From: an uncultured Thermoplasmata archaeon
Lineage (GTDB): Archaea; Thermoplasmatota; DTKX01; GCA-020343715
Length of the DNA stretch: 64,000 bases
Assembly (NCBI GenBank): GCA_965369625.1
Contig: CBDUQW010000003.1
Span: 9,883-73,882 of the forward strand
Direction of reading: 5' to 3'
The notes under the pieces were generated by a model. That model was not told where the DNA came from. It did not search any database and worked only from the letters and a program-made list of their open reading frames with translations. Numbering within the stretch: position 1 is the stretch's first letter; each line of letters starts with the position of its first letter. Shown one piece after another: positions 29,728 to 62,371 of the stretch. Made by a program: the position numbers and the translations under genes.

Positions 29728-29728
29728 C

Positions 29729-35532: not shown

Positions 35533-35533
35533 C

Positions 35534-38554: not shown

Positions 38555-38555
38555 G

Positions 38556-43216: not shown

Positions 43217-43220
43217 ACCC

Positions 43221-45740: not shown

Positions 45741-45768
45741 GGGGTGACGGTTGGTTGGGGTGGTGAAG

Positions 45769-46278
45769 ATGACTGCTGATAATGTCCCGGACACCGCGTG
45801 GAAGGCCACGCTACTCGACGATGTGGGCGAGACGCTCAACCTGTGCTTCCAGTGTGGAACATGCACGAGCAGTTGTCCCTCGGGGAGGATGACGGCCTTC
45901 AGGACCCGTCAGATACTCCGCAAGGCCCAGTTCGGCCTCCCGGAGCTTATCCTTCCCTCGGACGACCTCTGGTACTGCACAACGTGCTACACGTGCTACG
46001 AACGTTGCCCGCGGGGCGTCGAGATCGTGGATATAATCACCGCTCTCCGGAACATGGCCGTTAGGGCCGGGTTCATGTCGGAGAACCACAAGGACCTGGT
46101 CAAGACCCTCTACGAGACGGGTCACCTCATCCCGACCTCCGACAAGATCATGGCCCTCAGGAAGGGCCTGGGCCTGGACGAGGTGCCCAACACCGTGCTC
46201 AAGGACGAGGAGGCCCTCAAGCAGGTCCAGTACATCATGGAGCAGACACGGCTCCTCATGATAATCAAGGGGGACTGA
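45769..46278 (+). CDS. hdrC: Heterodisulfide reductase subunit C
   Basis: It has CFQCGTCTSSCPSG and CTTCYTCYERCPRGV. I prefer ATG 45769 over the track start at 45751. Confidence 0.9.
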   Translation: MTADNVPDTAWKATLLDDVGETLNLCFQCGTCTSSCPSGRMTAFRTRQILRKAQFGLPELILPSDDLWYCTTCYTCYERCPRGVEIVDIITALRNMAVRAGFMSENHKDLVKTLYETGHLIPTSDKIMALRKGLGLDEVPNTVLKDEEALKQVQYIMEQTRLLMIIKGD

Positions 46279-46282
46279 TAAC

Positions 46283-47140
46283 ATGGACATCGCCTTCTTC
46301 TTAGGATGTATCGCACCCCTTCGGTACCCTGGCATCGAGTCAGCGACCCGGGAGGTCCTCGACAGGCTGGGGGTCTCCATACGTGACCTGGACGGGGCAT
46401 CCTGCTGCCCGGCCCCCGGTGTGACGCGCAGTTTCGATGTCAAGACCTGGGTCACCATGGCAGCCCGCAACATCGCCCTCGCCGAGCGCCAGGGCTTGAA
46501 TATCCTGACCGTCTGCAACGGCTGCTTCGGTTCCCTGTTCGAGGCGGCATACCGGCTGGGGGAGGAACCCGATCTCCTCAGGGAGGTCAACGGCATACTG
46601 GAGGGGCTCAACATGACGGTGACGCCCCACGGCGTCGAGGTCAGGCACTTCGCGGAGTTCCTGGCAAAGGACGTGAACGAGAACACGATCAAGAAGTCGT
46701 TCAAGCGCAAGCTCGACCTGGATGTGGCCGTGCACTACGGCTGCCACTTCCTGAAACCCTCCAAGATAAAGCAGCTCGACGACCCCGAGAGGCCGACCAT
46801 GGTGGACAAGCTGGTGAGGCTCACCGGCGCCCGCAGCCTGGAGTACAGGGAGAAGCAGATGTGCTGCGGGGCCGGCGGCGGCGTGCGCGCGCGCCACCCG
46901 GACACCGCACTGGCCATGACCAAGGACAAGGTGGATATAATCAAGGAGGCGGGAGCCGACTGCATCGTCGACGTGTGCCCCTTCTGCCACCTCCAGTACG
47001 ACAAGGGCCAGAAGGCCCTGGGCAAGGAGTACGACATCCCCGTCCTCCACCTGGCGCAGCTGTACGGCCTGGCGATGGACATCGACCCGAAGCTCCTGGG
47101 CTTCGAGGCCCACGCGGTGCCGGTGAACCTGGAAATCTGA
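46283..47140 (+). CDS. hdrB: Heterodisulfide reductase subunit B
   Basis: It has FFLGCIAPLRYPGIE, SCCPAPG, VCNGC, MCCGAGGG and VCPFCHLQY. Confidence 0.92.
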   Translation: MDIAFFLGCIAPLRYPGIESATREVLDRLGVSIRDLDGASCCPAPGVTRSFDVKTWVTMAARNIALAERQGLNILTVCNGCFGSLFEAAYRLGEEPDLLREVNGILEGLNMTVTPHGVEVRHFAEFLAKDVNENTIKKSFKRKLDLDVAVHYGCHFLKPSKIKQLDDPERPTMVDKLVRLTGARSLEYREKQMCCGAGGGVRARHPDTALAMTKDKVDIIKEAGADCIVDVCPFCHLQYDKGQKALGKEYDIPVLHLAQLYGLAMDIDPKLLGFEAHAVPVNLEI

Positions 47141-48621: not shown

Positions 48622-49449
48622 GTGATGACTGTGATGAAAACAGAAACGAAGACCTCTGTCGCGGGGAGGCCGTGGGAACCCAGCATCCTGATGCTCTGCT
48701 GTAAGAGGGCCGCTGCCGCGGATGCTCGTCTGGCAAGGATCTCCCGTATCCAGATGATCATGGACCCCAGGATCCTGCACCTCCCTTGCTCCGGTAATAT
48801 GGACCCAGCGTTGTGTGTACAGTTGCTCAGGGAAGGAATGGACGGTGTACTGGTGCTCGGGTGCCATCCCGGTGACTGCTGCAATTCCAACGGAAACCAC
48901 TTCGCTGAGATGAAGATGTCCTGGACCCGGCTGATCCTCAAGAAGACCGAGCTGGATGATGAGCGGCTCCGCATCGATTGGATGTCGGCCTCCGAGGACC
49001 AGCTCTTCACAGGTATCGTCTCGGACTTCATGGATAGGTTGCGGGCGTTTGGCCCCAACCCCGTCAATGACCCCGACAGGGTACAGATGCGCGAGCAGCT
49101 GGAAGCGGCGATCCTAACGTTGAACGACCTCCGCATCCGTGCCCTCATGGACAAGGTCCGCACGTTAGAGGACCAGGGGAACGTCTACGGTGAGGCCGTT
49201 GACCGGGAAGAGCTCAACGCGGCGGTGGTGTCTGCTTTGGAGTCCGAGTACCTGAGAAAGTCCGTCCTGGTCATGCTCAAGGGCAACGACATGACCGTCC
49301 CGCAGCTTGCGCGGAGGCTGAGCCTCAGCCCCGAGACCATCATGACACAGGTGGTCCGACTGAGGCAGAGGAACCTACTGGACATCTCGAGGATCGATGG
49401 TCTTGATCCATCCTACAAGATATCTGGAGGTGTAATCGATGACCGCTAA
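48622..49449 (+). CDS. MvhD-like domain with a degenerate cysteine motif, fused to the X extension (D4-X)
   Basis: It is a clear paralogue of D1-X (CVQLLREGMDGVLVLGCHPGDC; VPQLARRLSLSPETIMTQVVRLRQRNLL). However, CNWCSYAGADLAG is replaced by CKRAAAADARLAR and DCHY by DCCN. Confidence 0.8.
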   Translation: MMTVMKTETKTSVAGRPWEPSILMLCCKRAAAADARLARISRIQMIMDPRILHLPCSGNMDPALCVQLLREGMDGVLVLGCHPGDCCNSNGNHFAEMKMSWTRLILKKTELDDERLRIDWMSASEDQLFTGIVSDFMDRLRAFGPNPVNDPDRVQMREQLEAAILTLNDLRIRALMDKVRTLEDQGNVYGEAVDREELNAAVVSALESEYLRKSVLVMLKGNDMTVPQLARRLSLSPETIMTQVVRLRQRNLLDISRIDGLDPSYKISGGVIDDR

Positions 49450-52400
49450 GGGGAAAACCGGTGCCGTCCTCGTCGTGGGGGGAGGCATATCAGGGATGCA
49501 ATCGGCCCTCGACCTAGGTGATGCAGGCTTCAGGGTCTACTTGGTGGAGCGGAAGCCGACGATAGGCGGCGCCATGGCCCAACTTGACAAGACCTTCCCG
49601 ACCAACGACTGCTCGATGTGCATCATGGCACCCAAGCTGGTCGCGGTCGACAAGCACCCGAACATCGAGATAATCTCGAACGCAGAGGTCGAGAAGGTGA
49701 CTGGAAGGCCCGGTCGATTCCTGGTCTCGCTGATCAAACACCCCCGTTACGTGGACGAGGATAAGTGCACAGGCTGTGGGCAATGCAGCATGAAGTGCCC
49801 AGTCGAGGCCATCGACATGTACAACGAGGGCCTCATGACCCGCGCCGCCATCTACGTCGACTACCCGCAAGCAGTGCCCCTCAAGTTCCGCATCGACAAG
49901 GAGCGCTGCATAGGATGCGGCATATGCGAGGGCGAGTGCCTGGCGAATGCCATCGACTTCAACCAGAAAGAGGAGCTGATGAAGGTCAGGGTGGGCTCCA
50001 TCATCCTGTCCCCGGGTTTCGACGAGTTCGACCCCACCGCCCTGAGGGAGTACGGCTACGGGCAGTACCCGAACGTCGTTTCCTCCATCGAGTTCGAGCG
50101 CATGCTGTCGGCATCCGGACCCTTCCGCGGCGTTGTCATGAGACCCTCCGACGGGAAGGTCCCCGAGAAGGTGGCCTTCATCCAGTGCGTGGGGTCGCGG
50201 GACGAGCACATCGGCCACAACTACTGCTCGTCGGTGTGCTGCATGCACGCCATCAAGGAGGCGATGATCGCCCAGGAACACACCGAGGGCCTGTCCTCCC
50301 ACATATTCTTCATGGACATCAGGGCCTTCGGCAAGGAGTTCGACGACTACGTCACCCGGGCCCGCGACGAGTTCGGAATCGGCATCACCCGGGGCAACCG
50401 TGTGGCCGACATCACCCAGAATCCCAAGACCAAGGACCTGCGGGTGCGTTACATCGAGGGTGGCGACATCAAGTACGAGAGGTTCAACCTCGTCGTGCTG
50501 TCCGTGGGCCTCCATGCCCCCAGGACGGCGAAGGACCTGTCGGCAGCCTTCGGTATCGATCTCAACCGGTACAACTTCGCGGAAACCAGGACCTTCTCTC
50601 CCCTGGAGACCAACGTCCCGGGCATCTTCGTCTCGGGCGCCTTCTCGGGTCCCAAGGACATCCCCACCACGGTGGCCGAGGCCTCCGGGGCGGCCGCGAA
50701 GGCCGCCGCGGACATCCACGAGGCCCGCAACACCCTCCTCACCGAGGTCCAGCTCCCTCCCGAGCGTGACGTCATGGGGGAGGAGCCGAGGATCGGCGTG
50801 TTCGTCTGTCACTGCGGCATCAACATCGGGGGCGTGGTGGATGTGCCGGATGTGGTGGAGTACGCGAAGAGCCTCCCGGGGGTGGTGTACGCGGAGCACA
50901 ACCTCTACACCTGTTCCGCGGACACCCAGGAGCGCATCAAGGAGAGGATAGTGAAGCTCGACCTCAACCGGGTGGTGGTGGCATCGTGCACGCCCCGTAC
51001 CCACGAGCCGCTGTTCAGGAGCACCGTCCGGGAGGCGGGGCTCAATCCCTACCTCTTCGAGATGGCCAACATCCGGGACCAGTGCTCCTGGGTCCACATG
51101 CACGAGCACGAGGCCGCCTCGTTGAAGGCCAAGGACCTGGTGAGGATGGCGGTATCCAGGGCTTGCTTGCTCGAGCCGCTCCAAAGGGCTGTCATCCCCG
51201 TCACCCAGAGGGCCCTTGTCATCGGGGGCGGCGTGTCTGGCATGACCGCGGCCCTCGACATCGCGGACCAGGGCTTCACCACGTACCTCGTTGAACGTGA
51301 GAAGAAACTTGGAGGCATTGCGAGGCACCTTCATACGACCCTCCAGGGCGACGATGTCCAGACCGAGCTGGAGCGTATGATCTCCAAGGTCTGGGCACAC
51401 CCGAACATTCAGGTCATCATCGGTTCAGAGATCGAAGACGTCAAGGGGAGCGTCGGCAACTTCAGTACCAAGCTGAGAGGGAATGAGGAGACGCTGGAGC
51501 ATGGCGTCATCCTGGTCACCACTGGCGGCATGGAGTACAAGCCTGAAGAGCACCTCTACGGGAAGGACGACCGCGTCGTCACCCAGCTGGAGTTCGAGGA
51601 GGAGCTGGTCAATGCCGATCCCGAAGACCTCCCCTCGACCGCCGTCTTCATCCAGTGCGTGGGGTGCAGGAACGAGGAACGGTCCTACTGCAGCCGCGTA
51701 TGCTGCGGCACCTCGGTGAAGCAGGCGCTGTTGCTCAAGAAGGAACGCCCGGACGCCCAGGTGTTCGTGCTGTACCGCGACCTCCGGACCTATGCATTCA
51801 AGGAGGACGCCTACAAGGAGGCCGCGGAGGCGGGCGTGGTCTTCATCCGCTTCGACGAAGACAGGGAACCCAAGGTCTCGAAGGACAAATCGAAGGATGG
51901 CCCCCTCGAGGTCATGGTCTACGAGGAGCTGCTGGAGGAGAATCTCCGTATCGAGGCGGACCGCCTGATCCTCGCAGCCGCCATCCTCCCGCCGGAGGAT
52001 AACGAGCGGTTGGCCCAGCTGCTCAAGCTCCCCCTCTCCAAGGACGGGTTCTTCCTCGAGGCCCACATGAAGCTGCGCCCCCTGGACTTCGCCACCGACG
52101 GGGTCTTCCTCGCCGGCCTCGCCCACTCGCCGAAGTACCTGGACGAGTGCATCGCCCAGGCCTCCGGTGCTGCGGCCAGAGCGCTGTGCATCCTCTCAAG
52201 GCCAACCTTCGAGGCAGAGGGGATCGTGGCCTCGGTGGAGACCGCTCTGTGCAGGGGCTGTGGTCGCTGTCGCGAGGCCTGCGTGTACGGCGCCATCGAC
52301 ATCGAGGAGGTGGAGCCGGAGGTGTTCATATCGCGGGTCAACGAGGCGCTGTGCAAGGGCTGCGGGACCTGTGCGGTCACATGTCCGAGCAAGGCGATCA

Positions 52401-52468
52401 GGATGAGCCACTTCACAGAGGACCAGATCCTGGCGACGATGAGATCATTACTGCTGGAGGCCATCTGA
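49439..52468 (+). CDS. Long two-module HdrA-like flavoprotein L4 (1009 aa), the closest paralogue of L2
   Basis: It has the same motif set as the other long copies. Long stretches are near-identical to L2, including the perfect 362-bp block. The C-terminal ferredoxin is divergent (CRGCGRCREACV, CKGCGTCAVTCP). Confidence 0.88.
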   Translation: MTAKGKTGAVLVVGGGISGMQSALDLGDAGFRVYLVERKPTIGGAMAQLDKTFPTNDCSMCIMAPKLVAVDKHPNIEIISNAEVEKVTGRPGRFLVSLIKHPRYVDEDKCTGCGQCSMKCPVEAIDMYNEGLMTRAAIYVDYPQAVPLKFRIDKERCIGCGICEGECLANAIDFNQKEELMKVRVGSIILSPGFDEFDPTALREYGYGQYPNVVSSIEFERMLSASGPFRGVVMRPSDGKVPEKVAFIQCVGSRDEHIGHNYCSSVCCMHAIKEAMIAQEHTEGLSSHIFFMDIRAFGKEFDDYVTRARDEFGIGITRGNRVADITQNPKTKDLRVRYIEGGDIKYERFNLVVLSVGLHAPRTAKDLSAAFGIDLNRYNFAETRTFSPLETNVPGIFVSGAFSGPKDIPTTVAEASGAAAKAAADIHEARNTLLTEVQLPPERDVMGEEPRIGVFVCHCGINIGGVVDVPDVVEYAKSLPGVVYAEHNLYTCSADTQERIKERIVKLDLNRVVVASCTPRTHEPLFRSTVREAGLNPYLFEMANIRDQCSWVHMHEHEAASLKAKDLVRMAVSRACLLEPLQRAVIPVTQRALVIGGGVSGMTAALDIADQGFTTYLVEREKKLGGIARHLHTTLQGDDVQTELERMISKVWAHPNIQVIIGSEIEDVKGSVGNFSTKLRGNEETLEHGVILVTTGGMEYKPEEHLYGKDDRVVTQLEFEEELVNADPEDLPSTAVFIQCVGCRNEERSYCSRVCCGTSVKQALLLKKERPDAQVFVLYRDLRTYAFKEDAYKEAAEAGVVFIRFDEDREPKVSKDKSKDGPLEVMVYEELLEENLRIEADRLILAAAILPPEDNERLAQLLKLPLSKDGFFLEAHMKLRPLDFATDGVFLAGLAHSPKYLDECIAQASGAAARALCILSRPTFEAEGIVASVETALCRGCGRCREACVYGAIDIEEVEPEVFISRVNEALCKGCGTCAVTCPSKAIRMSHFTEDQILATMRSLLLEAI
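50153..50514 (+). repeat. 362-bp block 100% identical to 36248-36609
   Basis: Base-by-base comparison; see the partner feature at 36248-36609. Confidence 0.9.
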
Positions 52469-54108
52469 TGTCCGCGTTTGAACCTGAGAGCCTGGCCCTG
52501 TGCTGCAACTGGTGCGGCTATGCGGGGGCGGACCTCGCCGGGGTCAGCAGGATCCAATACCCGCCCAACATCAGGATCATGAGGATCATGTGCTCGGGAA
52601 GGGTGGAGATCAACCACCTGTTGACAGCGCTCATGTTCGGGGCGGACGGCGTCATGGTGGTGTGCTGCCACCCCGGGGACTGCCACTACGTCTCTGGCAA
52701 CGAGAGGGCGGAGAAGAACTTCGAAACGACCAAGGAGCTGCTCCGATACCTTGACATGGAGGACCGGGTCCGAATGGAGCCCATCTCGGCTGCCGAGGGG
52801 ACCAAGTTCGGCAAGGTGGTCTCCGAGTTCACCGAGGACCTGAGGAAGCTGGGCCCCAACCCCATGAAGAAGGTCCGACACCGCTTCTCTCCGGACCGAA
52901 AAGGCATCACCCAAGAGGAGTTCCAAGGGAACATGGCAGATATTGTGGAAATCACGGGGGTGTACGACTGCCTTGAATGCGGCAAGTGCGCCGCAAGCTG
53001 CCCCAACACCAGGATGGACCACAATTACTCCCCGATGCTCACGGTCGAAAGGGTCCATAGGGGGCTGATCGACGAGATAGCTGAGGACCCGGGCATCTGG
53101 ACCTGCATGACATGCGGGACCTGCAGTTACCGCTGTCCCTCCGGTGTTGACTACACGGGTTTCATAAGACGCGTGAGGGCGCTCAAGGTGGGGACCGGGG
53201 GAAGGTGCTCCCACGGGGGCGTCTTCACCACGCTGGCGAAACTGATGTCGAACCCCGAGGTCATCCAGAAGGACCGGCTCCGATGGGTGTCGGACGACCT
53301 CTCGGTCTCGAAGAAGGGCGACCTGGTGTACTTCACAGGCTGCCTGCCCTACTTCGACCCCATCTTCAGGGACATCAACGTCCATTGCACCGAGATCGCG
53401 AGGAGCACGGTGCGAATACTGAACAAGGCGGGCATCACGCCCGCTGTCATGGAGGACGAGCGGTGCTGCGGCCATGACCTCCTCTGGAGCGGGGAGGACG
53501 AGGGCATGGTCCAGGACCTGGCACGGATCAATCTCGGGGCCCTGAAGGAAGCCGGTGCCAAGAGGGTGGTCATGAGCTGTCCAGAATGCTACAGGACCTT
53601 CGTGAAGGACTATCCCGAGTACGCAAGCGGGAGCGCCATGGACTTCGAGGTGCTGCACACCTCCGAGCTATTCGCGGAGCTGATCGAGGAGGGGAAGCTG
53701 GAGTTCGACGGCAAGGCCGGGGACATCGTGCCTATCACCTACCAGGACCCGTGCAGGCTGGGGCGCCATCTGGGTGTGTTCGACCAGCCACGGACCGTCC
53801 TGGAGAGCCTCCCCGGCGTTGAGCTCCGTGAGATGGAGGAAAGCCGCGGAAACGCGATCTGCTGCGGGACCTCGGCATGGATGAACTGCGGCACCTTCTC
53901 GAAGCGCGTACAGATGGATCGGTTACGGGAGGCGGCCGCGACGGACGCAGGGACCCTTGTCACCGCATGTCCCAAGTGCATGATCCACTTCAACTGCACA
54001 CTCTACGAGCCCGCCGACCCGGACCTGCCGACCAAGCCGGACATCACGGTCAGGGACCTCTCAACGTTCATGGCCGAGGCGATGGGCCTCAAGGGGGAAT
54101 CCGGATGA
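52468..54108 (+). CDS. Triple fusion of MvhD domain, HdrC-like 2x[4Fe-4S] domain and HdrB-like double CCG domain (MvhD-HdrD-like, D5)
   Basis: A TGATG overlap joins it to L4. The MvhD part has CCNWCGYAGADLAG, IMCSGRVE and CCHPGDCHY. The ferredoxin part has CLECGKCAASCP and CMTCGTCSYRCP. CCG domain 1 has FTGCLPYF..ERCCGHD..MSCPECY and CCG domain 2 has QDPCRLG..AICCGTS..TACPKCM. The track ORF start at 52147 is a run-on. Confidence 0.85.
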   Translation: MSAFEPESLALCCNWCGYAGADLAGVSRIQYPPNIRIMRIMCSGRVEINHLLTALMFGADGVMVVCCHPGDCHYVSGNERAEKNFETTKELLRYLDMEDRVRMEPISAAEGTKFGKVVSEFTEDLRKLGPNPMKKVRHRFSPDRKGITQEEFQGNMADIVEITGVYDCLECGKCAASCPNTRMDHNYSPMLTVERVHRGLIDEIAEDPGIWTCMTCGTCSYRCPSGVDYTGFIRRVRALKVGTGGRCSHGGVFTTLAKLMSNPEVIQKDRLRWVSDDLSVSKKGDLVYFTGCLPYFDPIFRDINVHCTEIARSTVRILNKAGITPAVMEDERCCGHDLLWSGEDEGMVQDLARINLGALKEAGAKRVVMSCPECYRTFVKDYPEYASGSAMDFEVLHTSELFAELIEEGKLEFDGKAGDIVPITYQDPCRLGRHLGVFDQPRTVLESLPGVELREMEESRGNAICCGTSAWMNCGTFSKRVQMDRLREAAATDAGTLVTACPKCMIHFNCTLYEPADPDLPTKPDITVRDLSTFMAEAMGLKGESG

Positions 54109-55436
54109 ACAACGTTGACGATGACGTGCTGATAATCGGCGCTGGGATCGCCGGCATCCAGGCCTCGTTGGACCTGGCCACGGCTGGGATCCAGGTCAGA
54201 TTGGTGGAGAAGGAGCCCAGCATCGGAGGCCGCATGGCTCAACTCGACAAGACGTTCCCCACCAACGACTGTTCCATCTGCATCCTGGCGCCCAAGATGC
54301 TCGAGTGCTTCGACCACGAGAACATCGACGTGATGACCTACTCCGAGGTGAAATCAGTGAGGGGCGAGGTCGGGAACTTCACCGTGGAGGTGCTGAAGAA
54401 GCCCAGATACGTGGACGCCGAGAGGTGCACAGGCTGCGGTGCGTGCATGGAGAAGTGTCCAACGAAGGTGCCGGACGAGTTCGACATGAACCTGCGCATG
54501 CGGAAGGCCATATACTTTCCCTTCGCCCAGGCAGTGCCCCGGATAGCTACCATCGACGAGGAGAACTGCCTCTACTTCAAGACGGGCAAGTGCAAGATAT
54601 GCGAGAAGGTCTGCCAGGCCAAGGCCATCGACCACGATATGAAGCCCGAGGTGGTGACCCTCAAGGTGGGCGTCATCATCGTTGCCTCGGGGTTCGAGAC
54701 CTACATGCCTCACGAGCTGGAGGAGTACGGGTACGACCGGTTCGCCAACGTGGTCACGGCGATGGAGTTCGAGCGGATCATCAATGCGGCAGGTCCCACG
54801 GGCGGGCACCTGCAGCGGCTCTCGGAGGACCACGAAAGGCCCAGGAGGCTAGCGTTCATCCAGTGCGTCGGCTCACGCGATACCCGTGTCAAGAGGCCCT
54901 ACTGCTGCGCTGTGTGCTGCATGTACTCCACCAAGGAGGCGATGCTTGCGAGGGAGCATTACTCTGATATAGAGTCCACCATTTTCTACACGGACATCAG
55001 GGCATTCGGGAAGGGGTTCACGGAGTACATCGAACGCGCCAAGAGGGAGTACGGGGTCAAGTACATCCGTGCCAAGCCTGGCGAGATCAGGGAGGAAAGG
55101 GACACCAAGAACCTGGCCATCTACTACCGGGACCCGGACACGCAGCACATCGAGGCCTTCGAGGCGGATTTCGTGGTGCTCGCCACCGCCCTAATACCCC
55201 GTAAGGGCGTGGAGGACCTCGCCAAGGTCCTGGGCGTGGAGCTGGACGAGTTCAACTTCTTCAGATCGCCGGACCCGGACGTCTTTCCGATGGAGACCAC
55301 GGTGAGAGGGATCTTCTCGGCGGGGTACTGTCAGAAACCGATGGACATACCCGAGGCGGTGGCCGAGGGCAGCGCGGCGGCCGCAAGGGCGATCGAGACG
55401 ATGAGCATGCAGGTGAACGGGGGTGAGACCGCATGA
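54105..55436 (+). CDS. Split long HdrA, part a: FAD module A with inserted ferredoxin (L5a, 443 aa)
   Basis: An ATGA overlap joins it to D5. It has IIGAGIAGIQASL, GGRMAQLDKTFPTNDCSIC, CTGCGACMEKCP, CKICEKVCQ and FIQCVGSRD..YCCAVCCMY. It ends where module A ends in L1-L4. Confidence 0.88.
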   Translation: MNNVDDDVLIIGAGIAGIQASLDLATAGIQVRLVEKEPSIGGRMAQLDKTFPTNDCSICILAPKMLECFDHENIDVMTYSEVKSVRGEVGNFTVEVLKKPRYVDAERCTGCGACMEKCPTKVPDEFDMNLRMRKAIYFPFAQAVPRIATIDEENCLYFKTGKCKICEKVCQAKAIDHDMKPEVVTLKVGVIIVASGFETYMPHELEEYGYDRFANVVTAMEFERIINAAGPTGGHLQRLSEDHERPRRLAFIQCVGSRDTRVKRPYCCAVCCMYSTKEAMLAREHYSDIESTIFYTDIRAFGKGFTEYIERAKREYGVKYIRAKPGEIREERDTKNLAIYYRDPDTQHIEAFEADFVVLATALIPRKGVEDLAKVLGVELDEFNFFRSPDPDVFPMETTVRGIFSAGYCQKPMDIPEAVAEGSAAAARAIETMSMQVNGGETA

Positions 55437-57169
55437 GCGATGCGGGGTCGGCCGATCCAGGGTCCGAACCGAGGATAGGCGTGTTCGTCTGCCATTGCGG
55501 GACGAACATCGGGGGCGTCGTCGACGTCCCAGCGGTGGTGGAGTACACAAAAGGCCTACAACACGTCGTACACGCGGAGGGTAACCTCTATACCTGTGCT
55601 TCGGACGGCATCGCCGCCATCCAACATGCGATCAAGGAGCACGACCTCAACAGGGTCGTCGTGGCGTCGTGCACGCCACGGACCCACTCGACGCTGTTCA
55701 TGAGGGCGTGCGCCGATGCGGGCCTCAACCCCTACCTCTTCGAGTTCGTCAACATCCGGGACCAGTGCTCCTGGGTCCACATGCGCGAACCGGAGAAGGC
55801 CACCGAGAAGGCCAAGGACCTGGTGAGGATGGGGGTGGCCAAGGCGGCTCTGCTGGAGCCCCTGGAGAAGATAGAGATCTCCATGGAGCCGGTGACGTTG
55901 GTGATCGGCGGGGGCGTGGCAGGGCTCAAGGCAGCAAGCGTCATCGGGAACAGCGGGTTCGAGGTCTACCTGGTGGAGAAGGAGGCCGAGCTCGGTGGGA
56001 TGGTCAGGAGCTTCTATCGCGTCTACCCGTCCAACAGGTTGGCCTCGGAATTCCTCGAACCCATCATCAGGTCCGTGGAGGAGAACGACAACGTCCATGT
56101 CCTCACCTCCACCATGGTCAAGGATGTCAAGGGTTACGTGGGCAACTTCGAGGTGACGGTCGCTACATCGGGCAATCGAGGTGAAACGACGTTCAAGGTC
56201 GGCACGATCATCGTCGCCACGGGCGCTGAGGTGCTCAGACCCGACGGCCTATACGGTTACGGGGAGTACACCAAGGTGATGAACCAGATGGAGCTCGACC
56301 ATTACATCAGCAAGGGCGACATCCAGGACCTGCAAAGCGTTGTGATGATCCAGTGCTGTGGTACCAGGGACGAGAATAGGCTGACCTATTGCTCCAGGGT
56401 CTGCTGTATGGCCGCGCTCAAGAACGCGTTGGCGATCAAGGAGATGGACCCGACCTCGGACGTGACCATACTTTACAGGGATGTCCAGACCCAAGGGATC
56501 CGTTACGAGGCGCTCTACAGGGCAGCGAGGCAGGCCAGGGTACGGTTCATCAGATACAGTCCGGCAAGGGAACCCAAGGTGGAGGCAGTGACATCCCCCG
56601 ACGGCATGTTGAGGGTCGATTTCTTCGATGAGCTGATAGGTCGCCAGTCCAGCATCGAGTGCGATCGCGTCGTGCTGTCCTCTCCCCTCGTCCCGCACCA
56701 CGACAGTCTGGACCTGTCGAAGATCCTGCGGGTGCCGAGGGGCAAGGACAAGTTCTTCTTCGAGGCGCACGTGAAGCTGAGGCCTGTAGACTTCGCCACG
56801 GACGGTATATTCCTCTGCGGCACCGCGCATGGGCCAAAGGACATCACCGACTCCATCATCCAGGCACTGGGTGCGGCGGGGCGTGCCCTTGCTCTCCTCA
56901 GGAACGAACGGATAGAGGGCGAACCCATCGTGTCCATCGTAGACGAGAGCCTCTGCACCGGTTGTGGCACGTGCATCGAACTATGCCCCTATGGAGCGAT
57001 AGAGCGGACAGAGGATGACAAGGCGAGGGTGGTCGAGGCGCTCTGCAAGGGGTGCGGCGTCTGCACCTCCAGCTGCCCAGAGTTCGCGATCAACCTCCAG
57101 GGCTTCACCAACGAACAGATCCTTGCCCAGATGCGTTCCGCGCTGCAGGATGTCCCAGAAGCGAATTAG
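55433..57169 (+). CDS. Split long HdrA, part b: cluster domain, FAD module B and C-terminal ferredoxin (L5b, 578 aa)
   Basis: An ATGA overlap joins it to L5a. It has IGVFVCHCGTNIGGVVD..VVASCTPRTHSTLF..NIRDQCSW, VIGGGVAGLKAAS, MIQCCGTRD..YCSRVCCM, CTGCGTCIELCP and CKGCGVCTSSCP. Confidence 0.88.
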   Translation: MSDAGSADPGSEPRIGVFVCHCGTNIGGVVDVPAVVEYTKGLQHVVHAEGNLYTCASDGIAAIQHAIKEHDLNRVVVASCTPRTHSTLFMRACADAGLNPYLFEFVNIRDQCSWVHMREPEKATEKAKDLVRMGVAKAALLEPLEKIEISMEPVTLVIGGGVAGLKAASVIGNSGFEVYLVEKEAELGGMVRSFYRVYPSNRLASEFLEPIIRSVEENDNVHVLTSTMVKDVKGYVGNFEVTVATSGNRGETTFKVGTIIVATGAEVLRPDGLYGYGEYTKVMNQMELDHYISKGDIQDLQSVVMIQCCGTRDENRLTYCSRVCCMAALKNALAIKEMDPTSDVTILYRDVQTQGIRYEALYRAARQARVRFIRYSPAREPKVEAVTSPDGMLRVDFFDELIGRQSSIECDRVVLSSPLVPHHDSLDLSKILRVPRGKDKFFFEAHVKLRPVDFATDGIFLCGTAHGPKDITDSIIQALGAAGRALALLRNERIEGEPIVSIVDESLCTGCGTCIELCPYGAIERTEDDKARVVEALCKGCGVCTSSCPEFAINLQGFTNEQILAQMRSALQDVPEAN

Positions 57170-57332: not shown

Positions 57333-58088
57333 TCATATGAGGAAGGTCTTGACCAGAACGAAGGCGCCCAACGCGATGGTCAGCAGACCCACGAACCGGA
57401 GGGCGAGCCTGGGGTCCATCGATCTCGTTCCCAGGGGACCCAATGGGGTCGCGGCCACCGCACCCAACGTCAGCACTATGGGCAGCCAGGGGTCTATCCC
57501 CTCTCCCCATGCGAGGTACAGGATGAAGCTGGTGATGCAGATGGGTCCCTCAGCCAGGGTGGTTATGCCGATGGACCGTTTGACATCGACACCCGATATT
57601 ATCTGACCGCACGTGACGACCGGTCCGAACCCACCGCCCGACATCGACTTGTTGAACGCGCTCAGAGCTCCTATTCCGACCAGCCTTCGCCACGAGAAGG
57701 CGAAGGTCCTGCAAGTGAGGATTATCACCCCCATGGTCATGACGAGCACGCCGATGTACGTCTTGAGGGCCCACGTCGGGAGGTTGAGGGCCACGGTGAC
57801 CCCCAAGAACACGGCGACGAGACCCACCCCAATGATGAGCAGGGCGATACGTCGGTCCCTGCCGTCGCTCTTGATGTCCATGTTCTTGAACCGCTGGTGG
57901 AACATGGCGGCAGAGAGACCTGCGATCGCCTGGGACAACAGGATGGACGGGACGACCTGGAGAGGGTCCATGCCCATTATGATGAGCAAAGGTGCCAGTA
58001 TCGTACCGTAGCCCATACCCAGGGAGCTGTCCATGTACTCACAGCCGAAGGCCAGGAGGAGGAGGATTAAGGCAGCGATGATTTCCAA
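57333..58088 (-). CDS. TauE/SafE (TSUP) family anion exporter/permease
   Basis: It is a 251-aa polytopic protein with the internal duplication and glycine-rich motif (SGGGFGPVV) typical of the family. Confidence 0.8.
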   Translation of the reverse strand: MEIIAALILLLLAFGCEYMDSSLGMGYGTILAPLLIIMGMDPLQVVPSILLSQAIAGLSAAMFHQRFKNMDIKSDGRDRRIALLIIGVGLVAVFLGVTVALNLPTWALKTYIGVLVMTMGVIILTCRTFAFSWRRLVGIGALSAFNKSMSGGGFGPVVTCGQIISGVDVKRSIGITTLAEGPICITSFILYLAWGEGIDPWLPIVLTLGAVAATPLGPLGTRSMDPRLALRFVGLLTIALGAFVLVKTFLI

Positions 58089-58320: not shown

Positions 58321-58456
58321 ATTTGGTGTGAATCCAATGTATTATGGTGTACATATGGTGCCACGGCCGGGGGTGGCGGGGCTGGGGGTCAACATCGTCG
58401 CCGTGCCATCACCTGGAGGATGGCCATCTTGGGAAAGTTTCAATACCGGGGGTGGC

Positions 58457-58963
58457 ATGTCGAGACCGAACATCATGCGAGTGCTGCTGCTGGTCCTGGG
58501 CAACCCCATCCTCTGCGACGACGGCGTCGCCTTCCACGTGCTCGAGCACATGCGCCACCGGTTGCCCGGGTCGGAGGACCTGGCCATCGAGGAGGCCTGC
58601 ACGGGGGGCATGGACCTCCTCGTCTACATGCTCGACTTCGACCGCGTCCTCATCATCGACGCCGTCAAGACCAGACGTGAGCCCCCGGGCCACGTGGCCG
58701 TCTTCCGCGTGGAGGACCTGGAGGACTCCATCCACGTCGACTCCCCCCACCACACCAACTTCGCCACCGCCATCGAGCTGGGCAGGATGGTGCACCCGAC
58801 CAGGATGCCCGAGGAGATCGCCATCGTGGGCATCGAGGTGGACAACATCATGGACTTCACCGAGGAGATGACGCCCCCCGTCGAGGCGGCGGTGCCAGGA
58901 GCCGCTGAGATGGCGATGGGCATCCTCAGGGAGTGGGGCGTCCCCCTGTCCACCGATGACTGA
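58457..58963 (+). CDS. [NiFe] hydrogenase maturation endopeptidase (HycI/FrhD/HyaD family)
   Basis: It has VLGNPILCDDGVAFHV (the GNxLxxDDG motif), LIIDAV and SPHH. ATG 58457 or ATG 58475 is the likely start. The track ORF start at 58328 adds an atypical 43-aa extension. Confidence 0.85.
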   Translation: MSRPNIMRVLLLVLGNPILCDDGVAFHVLEHMRHRLPGSEDLAIEEACTGGMDLLVYMLDFDRVLIIDAVKTRREPPGHVAVFRVEDLEDSIHVDSPHHTNFATAIELGRMVHPTRMPEEIAIVGIEVDNIMDFTEEMTPPVEAAVPGAAEMAMGILREWGVPLSTDD

Positions 58964-58965
58964 CC

Positions 58966-59376
58966 TCACCCTACCGAAGCATCGTTGGGACGTGTCAACC
59001 ATGACAACACCACAAGGGCGAGCCCTGCGTATCCTATACCAGCTATCGCGAAGGTCCTCCAGGGCTGACCCAGCCCGTGGAATACCCACAGGATCGTCAC
59101 GAAGGCGACCGCAACGAGGGCCAACACCCACCACTTCCTCTCTCGATCGAGAATTACCATTGCGAACGCGAGATTGGCAAAGAAATTGAGGGCGATGAAG
59201 AAGATAGCTCCGAAGATGTAGCTGGGGGTGTACAGGTCGACATTTATACCCAGGTCTATCAGGATGTAGATCATGACCAAGGTGATGGTCAAGGAGAAGG
59301 TCACCCCTCCGAAGAAGAGCATGTTGTCAAGACCCTCTTCTGGACCAGTATCCTCTCCCTCACCCTGGGCAGACAT
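58966..59376 (-). CDS. Small polytopic membrane protein (136 aa, 3-4 TM); function unknown
   Basis: Only the distal part of track ORF 58966-60048 is plausible. ATG is at 59376. The hydrophobic segments are FFGGVTFSLTITLVMIYILI, IFGAIFFIALNFFANLAFAMVIL, WWVLALVAVAFVTILWVF and FAIAGIGYAGLALVVLSWL. The rest of the ORF is antisense to hypE. Confidence 0.55.
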   Translation of the reverse strand: MSAQGEGEDTGPEEGLDNMLFFGGVTFSLTITLVMIYILIDLGINVDLYTPSYIFGAIFFIALNFFANLAFAMVILDRERKWWVLALVAVAFVTILWVFHGLGQPWRTFAIAGIGYAGLALVVLSWLTRPNDASVG

Positions 59377-59463
59377 CGTCCTCGACTGTGATAACCAACG
59401 GTCAGATATCCTTTTTCCGCCTTGGCACAACAGTTTTATCGCATCGGGGCGGTTCACGGGTCT

Positions 59464-60525
59464 GTGACGGAAGAAAAGCTGGTCAGCATGGCCGACGGGG
59501 CAGGCGGCGAGAGGATGCAGGCCCTCATCTCCAAGGTGATACTGGAGAACCTGCCCTTCTCCCGTGGTGCGGGGGAGGTCCCGCTGGAGAGCCTGGACGA
59601 CGGAGCCGTCGTCGGCGACGTGGTAATCTCCACCGACATGCACACGGTGAAGCCGATATTCTTCCCCGGGGGTGACATCGGTGTCCTCTCGGTGGCGGGT
59701 ACCGTCAACGACGTCGCATCCATGGGCGCCAAGCCCATTGCGCTGTCCATCGCCTTCGTGGTCGAGGAGGGCTTCCCCGTCGAGGACCTGGCCAGGCTCA
59801 CCGCCAGCGCGGACGCCACGGCCAGGGAGGCCGGCGTGCCCATTGTCACAGGCGATACCAAGGTGGTCGAGAGGGGCGCTGCGGAGGGGCTGTTCGCCTG
59901 CACCACTGGCATGGGTTTCCGGACCCACGCCATCGACCACAACAATCGCGTCGTCGAGGACCATGTAGGCAAGCCCCAACGCTGGCTGCTGGACAGCCAG
60001 GTCACGCCTGGCGCCGCCATCATCCTCTCGGGGTACGTGGGCGACCACGGCCTCGCCGTACTGGCCCTACGGGAGGGCTACGGCTTCGACACCGAGGTGG
60101 TGTCCGACGTGGGGCCCATCAACCACCTGGTCGACGCCGCCATGAACGTGGGCGGTGTCCTGGCTGCCAAGGACCCCACCCGGGGCGGCATCGCTAACGC
60201 CCTGAACGAGTGGGCCGACAAGAGCGGTGTGGGCATCCTCGTGAGCGAGGACGACATCCCCATCCGACCCGCCGTCCTCCACGGCTGCGAGCTCCTGGGC
60301 ATCGACCCCTACGAGATAGGCAACGAGGGCAAGATACTCCTGGCCGTCGTCCCGGACCGGGCCCAGTCCATCGTCGACGCGCTTCACGGCCTTCCCAGGG
60401 GTGGCGAGGCAACGATCATCGGTCATGCCACAGAGGAGGTGGATGGGGTCGTCCTCGAGACCTCTGTTGGCGGCAGACGCATCGTCGAGCCCCCTGTATC
60501 CGATCCTATTCCCAGGATCTGCTGA
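59464..60525 (+). CDS. hypE: Hydrogenase maturation protein HypE (carbamoyl dehydratase)
   Basis: It has the AIR-synthase-like fold motifs and ends in the family-specific PRIC. I chose GTG 59464 so the N-terminus aligns with the usual short leader before the glycine-rich motif (here ADGAGGE). The track start is 59422. Confidence 0.88.
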   Translation: MTEEKLVSMADGAGGERMQALISKVILENLPFSRGAGEVPLESLDDGAVVGDVVISTDMHTVKPIFFPGGDIGVLSVAGTVNDVASMGAKPIALSIAFVVEEGFPVEDLARLTASADATAREAGVPIVTGDTKVVERGAAEGLFACTTGMGFRTHAIDHNNRVVEDHVGKPQRWLLDSQVTPGAAIILSGYVGDHGLAVLALREGYGFDTEVVSDVGPINHLVDAAMNVGGVLAAKDPTRGGIANALNEWADKSGVGILVSEDDIPIRPAVLHGCELLGIDPYEIGNEGKILLAVVPDRAQSIVDALHGLPRGGEATIIGHATEEVDGVVLETSVGGRRIVEPPVSDPIPRIC

Positions 60526-60543
60526 ACGGACCTGTCGGAACCA

Positions 60544-61665
60544 TCAGTGCATCTTACCGTACTTCAGCGCGATGGTGCAACCACCCTCTCGGGACACCAT
60601 GCAGGGCCCCACCGGTGTCGCGGGCTTGCAGGCGTTCCCGAAAAGGGGGCACTCGTTGGGCTCCAGCACGCCCCGTAGGACCTCGCCACACCTGCATCCC
60701 GGTGGCTCCTTGAAGTCCTGGTTCCACACGATCTCCAGCAGGTCCTCGTTCGACTTCCTTGCGTCATGAGTGACGTATTCCTCTCGTATCCCCATGGCGC
60801 TGTCGGGGATGAGGCCGAAGCCCCGCCACTTCTCCGACCGGGGCTCGAAGACCATGTCCATGGCGTCCTGGGCTGGGACGTTGCCCTCCTCGCGAACGAC
60901 CCGGGAGTACTCGTTCTCCACCTCCGTCCTGCCCTCGGCCCGCTGCCGGGTCAACATGTAGACCCCCATCAGCAGGTCCAGCGGTTCGAAGCCCGCCACC
61001 ACCTGGGGGATGCCCCACTGCTCGGCGATGGGTTCGTAGGGGCGGGTCCCGATGATGGTGCTCACGTGCCCGGGCTCTATGAGGCCGTCCAGCCTCACCT
61101 CGCCGAGGGACAGGACCGCCTCGAGGGCGGGGGGCAGCAGCCTGTGCATGGACAGGACGGTGAAGTTGTCCACCTGGTCCCGGTCGGCCATCTGGATGGC
61201 CACCGCGGTGGAGGGAGCGGTGGTCTCGAAACCGATGCCGATGTACACCACCTCCTTGTTCACGTGCTCCTTGGCGTACGAGAGCGCATCCTCCACCGAG
61301 TATACTATCCTCAGGTCCACCTCGCCCCTGGCCTTGAGGTCCATGAGGGTACCCGAGGGTCCCGGGATGCGCATGAAGTCGCCGAAGACGGCGATGGTCC
61401 TCCCTCCACGGGCCAGGGCGAAGACCTCCTCGGTCTCACCGGGTGATGTGACGCAGACGGGGCAGCCGGGCCCCTGACGTATCTCGACCCCCACCTCGGC
61501 CAGGCTCTGCTCCAGACCGAACCTGACCAGGGTGTCCTGGTGGGTCCCGCAGACGTGCATGTACCTTCCAGGCCGGTCGAGGTCCTTGATCCCCTTGAGT
61601 ATCCTGTCCGCCATCTCCCGGTCACGGAACCGGAAGAGACCGCTCTCGATGCTCTGCTCCCCCAT
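60544..61665 (-). CDS. hypD: Hydrogenase maturation protein HypD
   Basis: It has GPGCPVCVT, GFETTAP, and C-terminal PGCRCGEVL and CPLFG motifs. Confidence 0.9.
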   Translation of the reverse strand: MGEQSIESGLFRFRDREMADRILKGIKDLDRPGRYMHVCGTHQDTLVRFGLEQSLAEVGVEIRQGPGCPVCVTSPGETEEVFALARGGRTIAVFGDFMRIPGPSGTLMDLKARGEVDLRIVYSVEDALSYAKEHVNKEVVYIGIGFETTAPSTAVAIQMADRDQVDNFTVLSMHRLLPPALEAVLSLGEVRLDGLIEPGHVSTIIGTRPYEPIAEQWGIPQVVAGFEPLDLLMGVYMLTRQRAEGRTEVENEYSRVVREEGNVPAQDAMDMVFEPRSEKWRGFGLIPDSAMGIREEYVTHDARKSNEDLLEIVWNQDFKEPPGCRCGEVLRGVLEPNECPLFGNACKPATPVGPCMVSREGGCTIALKYGKMH

Positions 61666-61668
61666 GGC

Positions 61669-62082
61669 CTATTCCCCCTGTGCTCCTGCCACTTCAACAT
61701 CCTCGGGGACCTGCAGACGGATGTCCCGGATGATAAGGTCCCGTCCCTCGGTCACCTCGACTAGCTCGCCGCATTGGGGACAGTCGAGGACGGGAGTCGT
61801 GAAATGGCTGTCGGGAAAGTCCACGATCTTGAGAGGGCCGGTGTACCCGCACGCGGCACAGTTGCCCCTGCCGTGCAACCTCTCGAGGGTCAGCTCCGCA
61901 CCCTCCAGGGGCGGCCCGATGTTCCTCTGGTATATCTCCCACGCGAACTCCAGCTGGTCGAACTCGAGGAACGTGAGCTCTCCCACCTGGAGCAGGACGG
62001 ACTCCACCTGGAGCGCCTCCTTCTCCCTCGCCAGGTCTACTATCGACTCCGCGACCTGGCTCATCACCGAGAGCTCGTGCAA
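61669..62082 (-). CDS. hypA: Hydrogenase nickel-insertion protein HypA
   Basis: Zn-site CxxC pairs are present (CAACG ... CPQCG). A TTG start at 62082 yields the conserved N-terminal M-H-E-L Ni-binding motif. The upstream ATG at 62109 would bury that motif. The track ORF (to 62523) is a run-on. Confidence 0.8.
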   Translation of the reverse strand: MHELSVMSQVAESIVDLAREKEALQVESVLLQVGELTFLEFDQLEFAWEIYQRNIGPPLEGAELTLERLHGRGNCAACGYTGPLKIVDFPDSHFTTPVLDCPQCGELVEVTEGRDLIIRDIRLQVPEDVEVAGAQGE

Positions 62083-62089
62083 GGGCGCC

Positions 62090-62332: not shown

Positions 62333-62371
62333 GTGCCAGGCATACCCGACGCCTCATAAATAGGTTGTCCC

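Follow-up and report, generated by a model that had tools for sequence, protein, structure and literature searches.

What does it mean for an electron transfer chain when its adaptor and its output module are made as one polypeptide? The question is raised by a single gene in the 64,000-nucleotide stretch of DNA that was analysed here (the window), which comes from an uncultured Thermoplasmata archaeon present in marine-sediment and cold-seep samples. The initial annotation described this gene as an MvhD-HdrC-HdrB triple fusion, a soluble heterodisulfide reductase module in which the covalent link would short-circuit or reroute the known electron path. We examined the gene itself, its domains, its operon, and its homologues, and compared them with the characterized HdrA-type complexes. 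The features on which the analysis rests are listed in Table 1.

Table 1. Coordinates of the fusion gene, its domains, and the neighboring operon genes in the window
Feature	Position	Strand	Basis
MvhD with C-terminal helical/winged-helix tail, 275 aa, operon gene 1	48622..49449	+	Pfam FlpD
Tandem ("type II") HdrA, 1009 aa	49439..52468	+	Two FAD/Pyr_redox modules and Fer4 (Pfam), motif map
MvhD-HdrD-like fusion gene, 546 aa	52468..54108	+	Stop-free translation, Pfam, full-length homologues, junction contigs
MvhD/FlpD domain, residues 1-136, [2Fe-2S] adaptor	52468..52875	+	PF02662, PDB matches, Foldseek
Short variable linker, approximately residues 137-146	52876..52905	+	Homology edges, alignments, pLDDT dip
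HdrC-like ferredoxin part, two CxxCxxCxxxCP motifs	52906..53202	+	Pfam Fer4_8/17/10, HdrC chains
First CCG domain: C292, C333, C334, C371, C374	53320..53622	+	PF02754, hhalign to the window's HdrB
Second CCG domain: C429, C465, C466, C501, C504	53728..54003	+	PF02754 (best stretch 423-508), hhalign
N-terminal half of split second tandem HdrA, 443 aa	54105..55436	+	Pyr_redox_2 and Fer4 (Pfam)
C-terminal half of split tandem HdrA, 578 aa	55433..57169	+	Pfam, motifs

The fusion gene is an intact single reading frame

The translation, the Pfam matches, and the alignment of cysteines confirmed the proposed composition of the 546-residue frame, namely, an MvhD domain, two CxxCxxCxxxCP motifs, and two CCG domains. 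The start codon (ATG at 52468) and the stop codon of the preceding gene share bases (TGATG), and this start position is common to the homologues. The junction of the MvhD and HdrD parts (about 52858 to 52960) is crossed with the frame kept by contigs from three independent metagenome studies; run X3 yielded a single gapless contig of 1,433 nt (52630 to 54062), and the contigs of runs X4 (52464 to 52995) and X8 (52464 to 53014) cross it as well. The sole indel pair among these contigs, a compensating +1/-1 pair at 52924/52930 in strain X8, lies immediately beyond the linker, where the sequence leading up to the first ferredoxin motif is variable. A full-length fusion homologue with 92% identity lies on a different contig, the same genome carries two more full-length fusion paralogues elsewhere (three fused copies in total), relatives within the genus and the family have the fused form as well, and the homologues fused over their full length number more than 100 distinct sequences. 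Many related genomes encode the two parts as separate neighboring genes, but because the junction is spanned in three independent studies and the fused form recurs in this way, an error of assembly or gene calling can practically be dismissed. The protein is also soluble, as had been proposed, with a Kyte-Doolittle 19-mer maximum of 1.55 and no transmembrane segment.

An MvhD domain is joined to a predicted HdrD-like module

The N-terminal domain clearly belongs to the Pfam FlpD/MvhD family (PF02662; residues 9 to 129, E = 4.9e-49, 165.9 bits against a cut-off of 22.3). Its cysteines are C12, C13, C16, C42, C67, and C72, and its motifs (CCNWC...MCSGR...CHPGDCHY) align with those of the solved chains 7bkb_F, 5odc_D, and 8rvu_F, the first of which matched residues 4 to 136 (E = 4.8e-43). 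In a Foldseek search the AlphaFold model superposed on MvhD (5odc_D) with a TM score of 0.92 and an RMSD of 1.3 Å. Homology to MvhD stops near residue 136 and homology to HdrC begins near residue 144; the linker columns are variable in two homologue alignments, pLDDT falls to 68 in block 141 to 150, and the gene boundary of split operons falls at fusion residues 133 to 148. The complete protein is modelled as one compact body, with a pLDDT of 89.5 and a pTM of 0.91.

The Pfam 4Fe-4S dicluster families (Fer4_8/17/10) matched residues 165 to 228. The two ferredoxin motifs (C168/171/174/178-P179 and C213/216/219/223-P224), whose cysteines are invariant in 118 homologues, are predicted to form two cubane [4Fe-4S] sites. 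The HdrC chains 8rvu_c and 5odc_C aligned with E values of about 1e-11, the match being confined to both motifs and the N-terminal half of HdrC. Downstream, PF02754 was found twice (E = 3.4e-24, 85.2 bits across the two stretches), and both domains fit the five-cysteine motif Cx(31-40)CCx(34-36)CxxC, with the patterns C292-x40-C333C334-x36-C371xxC374 (CCG1) and C429-x35-C465C466-x34-C501xxC504 (CCG2). By hhalign profile alignment each of the ten cysteines pairs with one of the ten in the HdrB that the window itself encodes, which bears out the view that both CCG domains carry the full cysteine complement. The CCG2 cysteines are invariant in the 118 homologues, and C374 is replaced by glycine (CPEG or CAEG) in many family members, including both paralogues of the same genome. 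Further Foldseek matches were HdrB (TM scores of 0.64 to 0.70), EtfD, and LutA.

The label HdrC-HdrB, originally given to this part, holds at the superfamily level and fails at the equivalog level, where the cut-offs were missed widely: 53.2 bits against 160 (TIGR03290) and 45.7 against 350 (NF041779) for HdrC, and 23.7 against 345.15 (TIGR03288) for HdrB. The best NCBIfam match, TfrB (NF004898), reached 144.3 bits against a cut-off of 385, and no TfrA-like gene is found in the operon. The membrane anchor and ETF linkage that define EtfD/EMO are likewise missing, as the protein has no hydrophobic segment and the etfAB genes are on another contig. PF02665, the HdrE-like cytochrome b family that marks HdrD of the HdrDE type, has no match anywhere in the genome, so that the lack of a membrane HdrE-like partner, first remarked upon for the neighborhood, extends genome-wide. 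Judged by its sequence, the C-terminal part is a generic HdrD/GlpC/TfrB/EtfD-like module.

The operon encodes two tandem HdrA proteins

The fusion gene is translationally coupled in a five-gene operon with the order mvhD-wHTH, tandem hdrA, fusion, and split tandem hdrA. The first gene product contains an FlpD domain (residues 22 to 144, E = 1.9e-31) and a weak MarR-type HTH match (215 to 255), and its gene overlaps the next by 11 nt. The tandem HdrA is arranged as TrxR1 with an inserted ferredoxin, an N-domain, TrxR2, and a C-terminal ferredoxin, with the motifs GxGxxG at 14 and 596, CSSVCC..K at 263, CSRVCC..K at 751, CHCG at 456, and ferredoxin motifs at 110, 157, 938, and 972. The stop codon of the fusion gene overlaps the start of the following gene (ATGA), and the two halves of the split HdrA overlap by 4 nt; the second half contains the N-domain, TrxR2, and the C-terminal ferredoxin. 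Three paralogous cassettes with this core order in common are present in the genome, each comprising two HdrA units, two MvhD domains, and one HdrD. In cassette 2 the second tandem HdrA is split likewise, and MvhD and a molybdopterin oxidoreductase come after the cassette.

No gene linked to the operon suggests a candidate substrate. Among membrane genes, a convergent one of the TauE family lies closest, and a functional link to it was rejected because it is missing from every related locus. In-frame TGA codons in two MvhD copies of the genome, on contigs C31 and C55, probably lie at the match ends, the one in the C55 copy being an ordinary stop codon, and no use of selenocysteine is claimed for this archaeon.

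The fused form is widespread and has arisen repeatedly

The survey of public genomes that had been recommended was carried out, and it revealed a widespread architecture, with most homologues found in bacteria. An open-frame test assigned the fused or split state at the best 80 related loci: 16 of the 80 are fused, 42 have adjacent but separate mvhD and hdrD genes, and 22 have HdrD alone. On the tree, the fusion state requires six changes, at least five of which are forced by well-supported branches; mvhD and hdrD were, on this tree, fused at least five times across bacteria and archaea. Directly upstream of the mvhD-hdrD pair, 45 of 52 loci have an HdrA gene; the corresponding count downstream is 48 of 57, and a second MvhD follows further downstream in 43 of 47. 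The gene order hdrA - mvhD - hdrD - hdrA - mvhD is conserved across many phyla. The MvhD domain might have implied a hydrogenase partner, an idea that we rejected, as MvhAG genes are near only 1 of the best 80 related loci.

These patterns do not support the idea of a short circuit: conserved adjacency or fusion, flanked by HdrA, is what would be expected of two neighboring subunits of one complex. Since the same join arose repeatedly, it is also a widespread variant rather than the special rewiring it was first taken for. HdrA-MvhD fusions, tandem HdrA, and HdrD-like neighbors have been reported (PMC2702500, PMC12054007, PMC9012536, PMC5296606, 10.1101/2025.09.16.676500), with the MvhD-HdrD fusion absent from these papers, and our literature search found no paper describing either this fusion or the operon type hdrA - mvhD - hdrD - hdrA - mvhD.

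Comparison with characterized complexes

BamDEF of Geobacter metallireducens (class II benzoyl-CoA reductase, BCRII) likewise combines a tandem HdrA (BamE, about 1,000 aa), HdrD-like BamD, and MvhD-like BamF, all of them soluble, and the same core is encoded together in the operon described here, whose first gene product resembles BamF in also having a winged-helix tail. In BCRII, electrons pass the BamF cluster last before they reach the bifurcating FAD of BamE, and the neighboring E4 cluster supplies BamD with the high-potential electron (bioRxiv 10.64898/2026.04.10.717634). [quoted passage not shown] Neither BamB/BamC (tungsten AOR-type) nor BamGHI (NuoEFG-like) is encoded in the operon or among the annotated open reading frames (27718 to 64000), so the locus does not encode a benzoyl-CoA reductase.

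The HdrABC-MvhAGD complex of hydrogenotrophic methanogens (PDB codes 5ODC, 7BKB, and 8RVU) is built from the same domain families, with 48 to 51% identity in MvhD and an HdrB-like double CCG unit with ten cysteines, and its HdrA partner has a counterpart encoded adjacent to the fusion gene. However, MvhD, HdrC, and HdrB are three separate proteins in that complex, its HdrA is single-module and homodimeric, and its hydrogenase is not a conserved neighbor of the fusion family, for which CoM-S-S-CoB is an unlikely substrate here. HdrA2 of Methanosarcina acetivorans (HdrA2B2C2) belongs to another soluble bifurcating Hdr in which MvhD is fused to an Hdr subunit, there at the C terminus of HdrA (PMC5296606) and here at the N terminus of the HdrCB-like subunit.

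HdrD (HdrDE), EtfD/EMO, TfrB, GlpC, and LutA also consist of an HdrC-like dicluster ferredoxin and two CCG domains, and EtfD (9ojn) is the best PDB match, in sequence and fold, for the C-terminal 400 residues of the fusion protein. In contrast to this superfamily, under all of whose equivalog cut-offs it scores, the fusion protein has an N-terminal MvhD domain, no cytochrome b, membrane partner, or transmembrane helices, and HdrA as its encoded partner in place of ETF, a fumarate reductase flavoprotein, or GlpAB. The type II HdrA clusters of ANME and methanogens also contain tandem HdrA, MvhD, and an occasional HdrD-like protein, in addition to FdhB and a molybdopterin protein (PMC12054007; PMC9012536); those reports do not mention an MvhD-HdrD fusion, and the host here is not a methane metabolizer.

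Proposed electron path and alternatives

On balance, the fusion protein probably unites, in an HdrA-type bifurcating complex, the adaptor with the subunit for high-potential output, and in this it resembles BamD plus BamF. It would be a soluble Fe-S subunit with an MvhD-type [2Fe-2S] adaptor (residues 1 to 136) and an HdrD-like module (about 147 to 546), the latter with a pair of cubane [4Fe-4S] sites and, in its CCG domains, two sites of five cysteines each that would bind non-cubane clusters. Gene order and translational coupling suggest that it is part of a flavin-based electron-bifurcating (or confurcating) complex, in which the HdrD-like part would dock on a thioredoxin-reductase module of HdrA, at its [4Fe-4S] cluster. 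The high-potential electron would pass through the two cubanes to the non-cubane pair, which has all ten ligand cysteines intact and may reduce a disulfide other than CoM-S-S-CoB. The MvhD part would keep its usual role as a relay beside the bifurcating flavin, in which case the fusion only ties together subunits that are already side by side, as BamF and BamD are on BamE.

A different path, with electrons moving straight between the [2Fe-2S] cluster of MvhD and the HdrC-like cubanes within one chain, is conceivable though unlikely. The protein would in that case either bypass the bifurcating flavin (donor, MvhD, HdrD, acceptor) or feed the high-potential output of one HdrA module into the input of the second (serial bifurcation). 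The compact predicted body and the linker of about 10 to 20 residues would make direct transfer possible, and the order of domains, from the C-terminal ferredoxin of HdrA to MvhD, HdrC-like, and HdrB-like parts, resembles a wire. So does a larger naturally occurring chain (P0209) in which GltD-like, ferredoxin, MvhD, and HdrD parts are fused and from which HdrA is missing. Serial coupling is also in keeping with the makeup of each cassette, with BamF as an established coupler of two bifurcation modules (bioRxiv 10.64898/2026.04.10.717634), and with the double bifurcation proposed for type II HdrA clusters including HdrD (PMC12054007). Nevertheless, simply bypassing the flavin would squander the very energy for whose conservation the flanking HdrA genes exist, and these genes are kept in about 85% of the loci; moreover, many orthologous operons have two separate genes, which implies that covalent linkage is not needed for function.

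The probable output path through the non-cubane pair could also end differently, with the high-potential electron passed, as in BamD, to a protein acceptor such as an electron transfer flavoprotein in place of a small disulfide, an alternative to which we give limited credence. Cryo-ET of BCRII placed ETF at the non-cubane clusters of BamD (bioRxiv 10.64898/2026.04.10.717634), the C-terminal part has its best structural match in EtfD, an ETF-oxidizing CCG protein, and the genome has one EtfAB pair. One CCG1 cysteine is missing from the two paralogues in this genome and from many relatives, and in most BamD homologues a cluster is disrupted as well. However, the copy studied here retains all ten, the etf genes lie away from the operon on contig C107, and an Etf-like family is not prominent among the recurring neighbors at 58 loci, where most families are unannotated.

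A bolder proposal, and a rather doubtful one, has the fusion protein bridge two HdrA bifurcation modules both physically and electronically: the HdrD part would take the high-potential electron of one tandem HdrA, and the MvhD part, rigidly fixed next to it, would feed the flavin of the other. If this were so, the three cassettes would have a core for two-stage (serial) bifurcation in common and differ in the donor attached to it, namely, hydrogenase, a formate-dehydrogenase-like protein, or an FrhB/glutamate-synthase-like set, and the bacterial donor would be a 2-oxoacid:ferredoxin oxidoreductase.

A further conceivable role, reduction of CoM-S-S-CoB by a soluble HdrD working with a nearby MvhAG hydrogenase as in methanogens, is very improbable, despite the complete HdrB-type cysteine set and the mvhGA hydrogenase and hdrCB genes 5 to 9 kb upstream of the fusion gene in the window, where MvhAG is encoded at 43221 to 45740. 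McrA is absent from the source genome (91% complete) and from six Thermoplasmatota relatives that carry the fusion gene or an HdrD-like relative, and DsrC, like HdrE, is absent from the source genome; CoM-S-S-CoB is thus an unlikely substrate. The mostly bacterial homologues, the wide margins by which the HdrB and HdrC equivalog models were missed, and the near absence of MvhAG from related loci also argue against it.

Implications

The repeated, independent fusion of MvhD and HdrD serves as a natural "Rosetta stone," and it indicates that the [2Fe-2S] adaptor and the high-potential output module adjoin in tandem-HdrA complexes. It also bears on a question raised by the BCRII and Hdr structures, namely, the way in which electrons of MvhD reach the bifurcating flavin. 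Many anaerobic bacterial and archaeal species have the operon type hdrA - mvhD - hdrD - hdrA - mvhD, and a single-chain MvhD-HdrD protein could serve as a handle by which such a complex is purified or imaged. In the archaeon itself, the three cassettes and an Hdr/Mvh island of about 30 kb point to an energy metabolism that is dominated by soluble bifurcation and operates without methanogenesis.

Domain architecture and fold of the fusion protein

The fusion gene consists of 546 codons, open throughout on translation, and its product comprises an MvhD/FlpD domain, a 4Fe-4S dicluster ferredoxin domain, and two CCG domains (see the table). Residues 1 to 136 align end to end with the solved MvhD chains 7bkb_F (E = 4.8e-43), 5odc_D, and 8rvu_F, and the cysteine motifs CCNWC, MCSGR, and CHPGDCHY of those chains are kept. 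The MvhD/HdrC join is short, as MvhD homology stops at about residue 136 and HdrC homology begins at about residue 144. With 118 homologues as input, AlphaFold gave a confident model (pLDDT 89.5, pTM 0.91) whose confidence drops only at residues 141-150; parts of it match MvhD (TM 0.92), HdrB (TM 0.64-0.70), EtfD, and LutA in the PDB. No hydrophobic segment was found in the protein.

The initial annotation had described an MvhD-HdrC-HdrB triple fusion with two complete CCG domains. Completeness is borne out: when a profile of the 118 homologues is aligned with the HdrB encoded in the window, all ten CCG cysteines fall on the ten HdrB cysteines. The C-terminal module was rejected as HdrC or HdrB proper, as it scores far short of their equivalog models. 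TfrB is the named family it matches best, again far under the cut-off.

Features of the fusion protein, its operon, the surrounding window, and related stretches
Feature	Position	Strand	Remark
MvhD/FlpD domain	residues 9-129		Pfam, E = 4.9e-49
4Fe-4S dicluster ferredoxin domain	residues 165-228		Pfam
CCG domains (two)			Pfam, E = 3.4e-24
Ferredoxin motifs	C168/171/174/178-P; C213/216/219/223-P
CCG motif 1	C292-x40-CC-x36-CxxC374
CCG motif 2	C429-x35-CC-x34-CxxC504
Gene 1, MvhD with winged-helix-like tail	48622-49449
Gene 2, tandem HdrA	49439-52468		1009 aa; stop overlaps fusion ATG as TGATG
Gene 3, fusion gene	52468-54108	+
Gene 4, N-terminal half of second tandem HdrA	54105-55436		start overlaps fusion stop as ATGA
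Gene 5, C-terminal half of second tandem HdrA	55433-57169
Contig of metagenome run X3	52630-54062		1433 nt; crosses junction
Contig of metagenome run X4	52464-52995		crosses junction
Contig of metagenome run X8	52464-53014		crosses junction
Hdr/Mvh island	27718-47140
HdrB used for profile alignment	46283-47140
TauE/SafE-family transporter	57333-58088	-	convergent with operon end
[NiFe]-hydrogenase maturation genes	58328-63979		ORF translation
Endopeptidase-like ORF	within 58328-63979		ORF translation
HypE-like	59422-60525		ORF translation
HypD-like	60544-61665	-	ORF translation
HypA-like zinc-finger ORF	within 58328-63979		ORF translation
HypF-like	62372-63979	-	ORF translation
Paralogous cassette 2	L089:9521-19998 (G000:C3:83403-93880)
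Paralogous cassette 3	L091:2604-14195 (G000:C55)
CODH/acetyl-CoA synthase-type genes	L090:5953-12347 (G000:C3:99835-106229)

The fusion is not an assembly artefact

Joining of separate genes during assembly is contradicted by several lines of evidence. Near-identical sequences are present in many marine-sediment and cold-seep metagenomes, and contigs of three different studies cross the MvhD/HdrD junction. A full-length homologue on another contig is 92% identical to the fusion protein, the same genome carries two further full-length paralogues (59% and 49% identical), and the fused form recurs in other members of the genus and the family. The best 120 database matches are full-length with the same Pfam content, except for four shorter entries (85-93% coverage), one of which lacks the MvhD domain. 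The sole indels in the junction contigs are a compensating +1/-1 pair in a variable stretch just beyond the linker and before the first ferredoxin motif: the X8 strain gains one nucleotide at 52924 and loses one at 52930, regaining the frame within six bases, which suggests relaxed constraint there.

Distribution and origin of the architecture

The architecture is also less singular than had been supposed. In a survey of one genome per prokaryotic species, at least 596 of the 600 candidate stretches listed encode relatives, and the matches listed come from Thermodesulfobacteriota, Chloroflexota, Thermoplasmatota, Planctomycetota, Zixibacteria, Gemmatimonadota, Cloacimonadota, and others. By an open-frame test on the best 80 loci, the gene is fused in 16; mvhD and hdrD are separate but directly adjoining in the same order in 42, and HdrD stands alone in 22, mostly in Asgard archaea. 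The fused state takes six changes on a maximum-likelihood tree built from the HdrD parts; well-supported branches force at least five of them, and the copies of this genome, three in all, group in a single clade. When 50%-identity representatives were searched exhaustively, about 20 of the best 150 matches were full-length fused clusters, most of the others being stand-alone proteins of about 380 aa. The fused proteins are named "hydrogenase iron-sulfur subunit," [quoted passage not shown] or "heterodisulfide reductase subunit D," so the architecture stands in databases under generic names.

Larger natural fusions also occur (database proteins P0209, P0169, P0197, and P0202). P0209 is a single 1146-aa chain made up of a GltD-like NAD(P)H flavoprotein, a ferredoxin, MvhD, and HdrD. 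Others, 860-950 aa long, have HdrD attached straight to a GltD-like domain. These proteins suggest that HdrD-like modules are connected to NAD(P)H modules as well, in chains that contain no HdrA.

Operon organization and conserved synteny

Five translationally coupled genes make up the operon, with the fusion gene in third place. The tandem HdrA of gene 2 contains two FAD modules, each with a CSxVCC....K motif; module 1 has an inserted ferredoxin, and module 2 has an N-domain and a C-terminal ferredoxin. In the Hdr/Mvh island 5' of the operon, canonical hdrA-hdrC-hdrB comes first. Next are three hdrA genes of the tandem type, which encode 1001, 1006, and 1015 aa; every one has an mvhD behind it, and one of these mvhD genes encodes a tailed protein of 261 aa. 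After them comes mvhG-mvhA-hdrC-hdrB. The TauE/SafE-family membrane transporter gene adjoins 0 of 80 related loci and is probably unrelated to the operon.

Both paralogous cassettes of the genome keep the core order of tandem HdrA, MvhD-HdrD, and split tandem HdrA, with different neighbors. Behind its core, cassette 2 has MvhD and a molybdopterin (FdhA-like) oxidoreductase. In cassette 3, a 717-aa fusion of an HdrA C-terminal half to MvhD comes next, then an FrhB-like protein and domains of the GXGXG and glutamate-synthase FMN types. In both paralogues, glycine replaces the fifth CCG1 cysteine, C374 (CPEG, CAEG), which is lost in many relatives too. The contig of cassette 2 also bears CODH/acetyl-CoA synthase-type genes, called from N-terminal sequence with a corrinoid Fe-S protein-like KTNCGECG motif, which suggest that this non-methanogenic archaeon may have a Wood-Ljungdahl pathway.

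Fused or adjacent mvhD-hdrD occurs at 58 of the related loci. HdrA genes flank it directly upstream at 45 of the 52 assessable loci and directly downstream at 48/57, and a second mvhD follows at 43/47. MvhAG hydrogenase genes are near only 1 of 80 related loci. At about 22 of the 58, a four-subunit 2-oxoacid:ferredoxin oxidoreductase (delta ferredoxin, alpha POR_N, beta TPP, gamma POR) directly precedes the hdrA-mvhD-hdrD-hdrA-mvhD(-hdrCB) set on the same strand (e.g., L086:1927-4830, L047:410-3146, L035:1897-4200); the window's own cassette has none. In-frame TGA codons at conserved MvhD cysteine positions in bacterial locus L009 (~8200, VAG*HIGDCHY) and Promethearchaeota locus L078 (CMW*FY) probably encode selenocysteine, which has been reported for Desulfobacterium autotrophicum MvhD; none is confirmed in the window's archaeon.

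Proposed role of the fusion protein

[quoted passage not shown] Cryo-EM of that core shows BamE to be a fused HdrA dimer. The final relay ahead of the bifurcating FAD is the [2Fe-2S] cluster of MvhD-like BamF, and the cluster adjacent to this FAD gives the high-potential electron to HdrD-like BamD, which passes it to an ETF (bioRxiv 10.64898/2026.04.10.717634). Both small subunits thus sit around the same flavin module, and a comparable arrangement would fit the conserved mvhD-hdrD adjacency, the repeated fusion, and the short join. By this analogy, we consider it fairly probable that the fusion protein serves an HdrA-type complex, bifurcating or confurcating, as its fused adaptor and high-potential output subunit. 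The initial annotation proposed a short-circuited or re-routed electron path; conserved adjacency, repeated fusion, and the short join instead favor a fusion that would tie two existing neighbor subunits without rewiring the path.

The acceptor of the high-potential electron would be a disulfide, favored by the retention of every one of the ten CCG cysteines in this copy. The same feature speaks against the main alternative, a protein acceptor such as ETF at the output end, which agrees with the single EtfAB pair in the genome and with the loss of C374 elsewhere, a loss that resembles the cluster disruption of most BamD homologues. Direct electron exchange between MvhD and HdrD, as a bypass or as a coupler of the cassette's two HdrA units, is consistent with the compact predicted model, the short linker, and the natural HdrA-free chain of GltD-like, ferredoxin, MvhD, and HdrD modules; however, the bypass is hard to square with the conserved flanking HdrA genes, and we regard the coupler as improbable. 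A CoM-S-S-CoB, DsrC trisulfide, or membrane quinone or phenazine route is unlikely in this archaeon, because this genome, 91% complete, lacks McrA, DsrC, and HdrE/NarI-type cytochrome b; McrA is also missing from six Thermoplasmatota relatives that have the fusion gene or an HdrD-like relative.

The MvhD-HdrD fusion is named in no paper found in our literature search, and HdrA-MvhD fusions, HdrD as an HdrCB fusion, tandem HdrA, and HdrD-like neighbors of HdrA have already been described. It is therefore a new, widespread, uncharacterized variant of a known system, useful mainly as a structural constraint and a purification handle.
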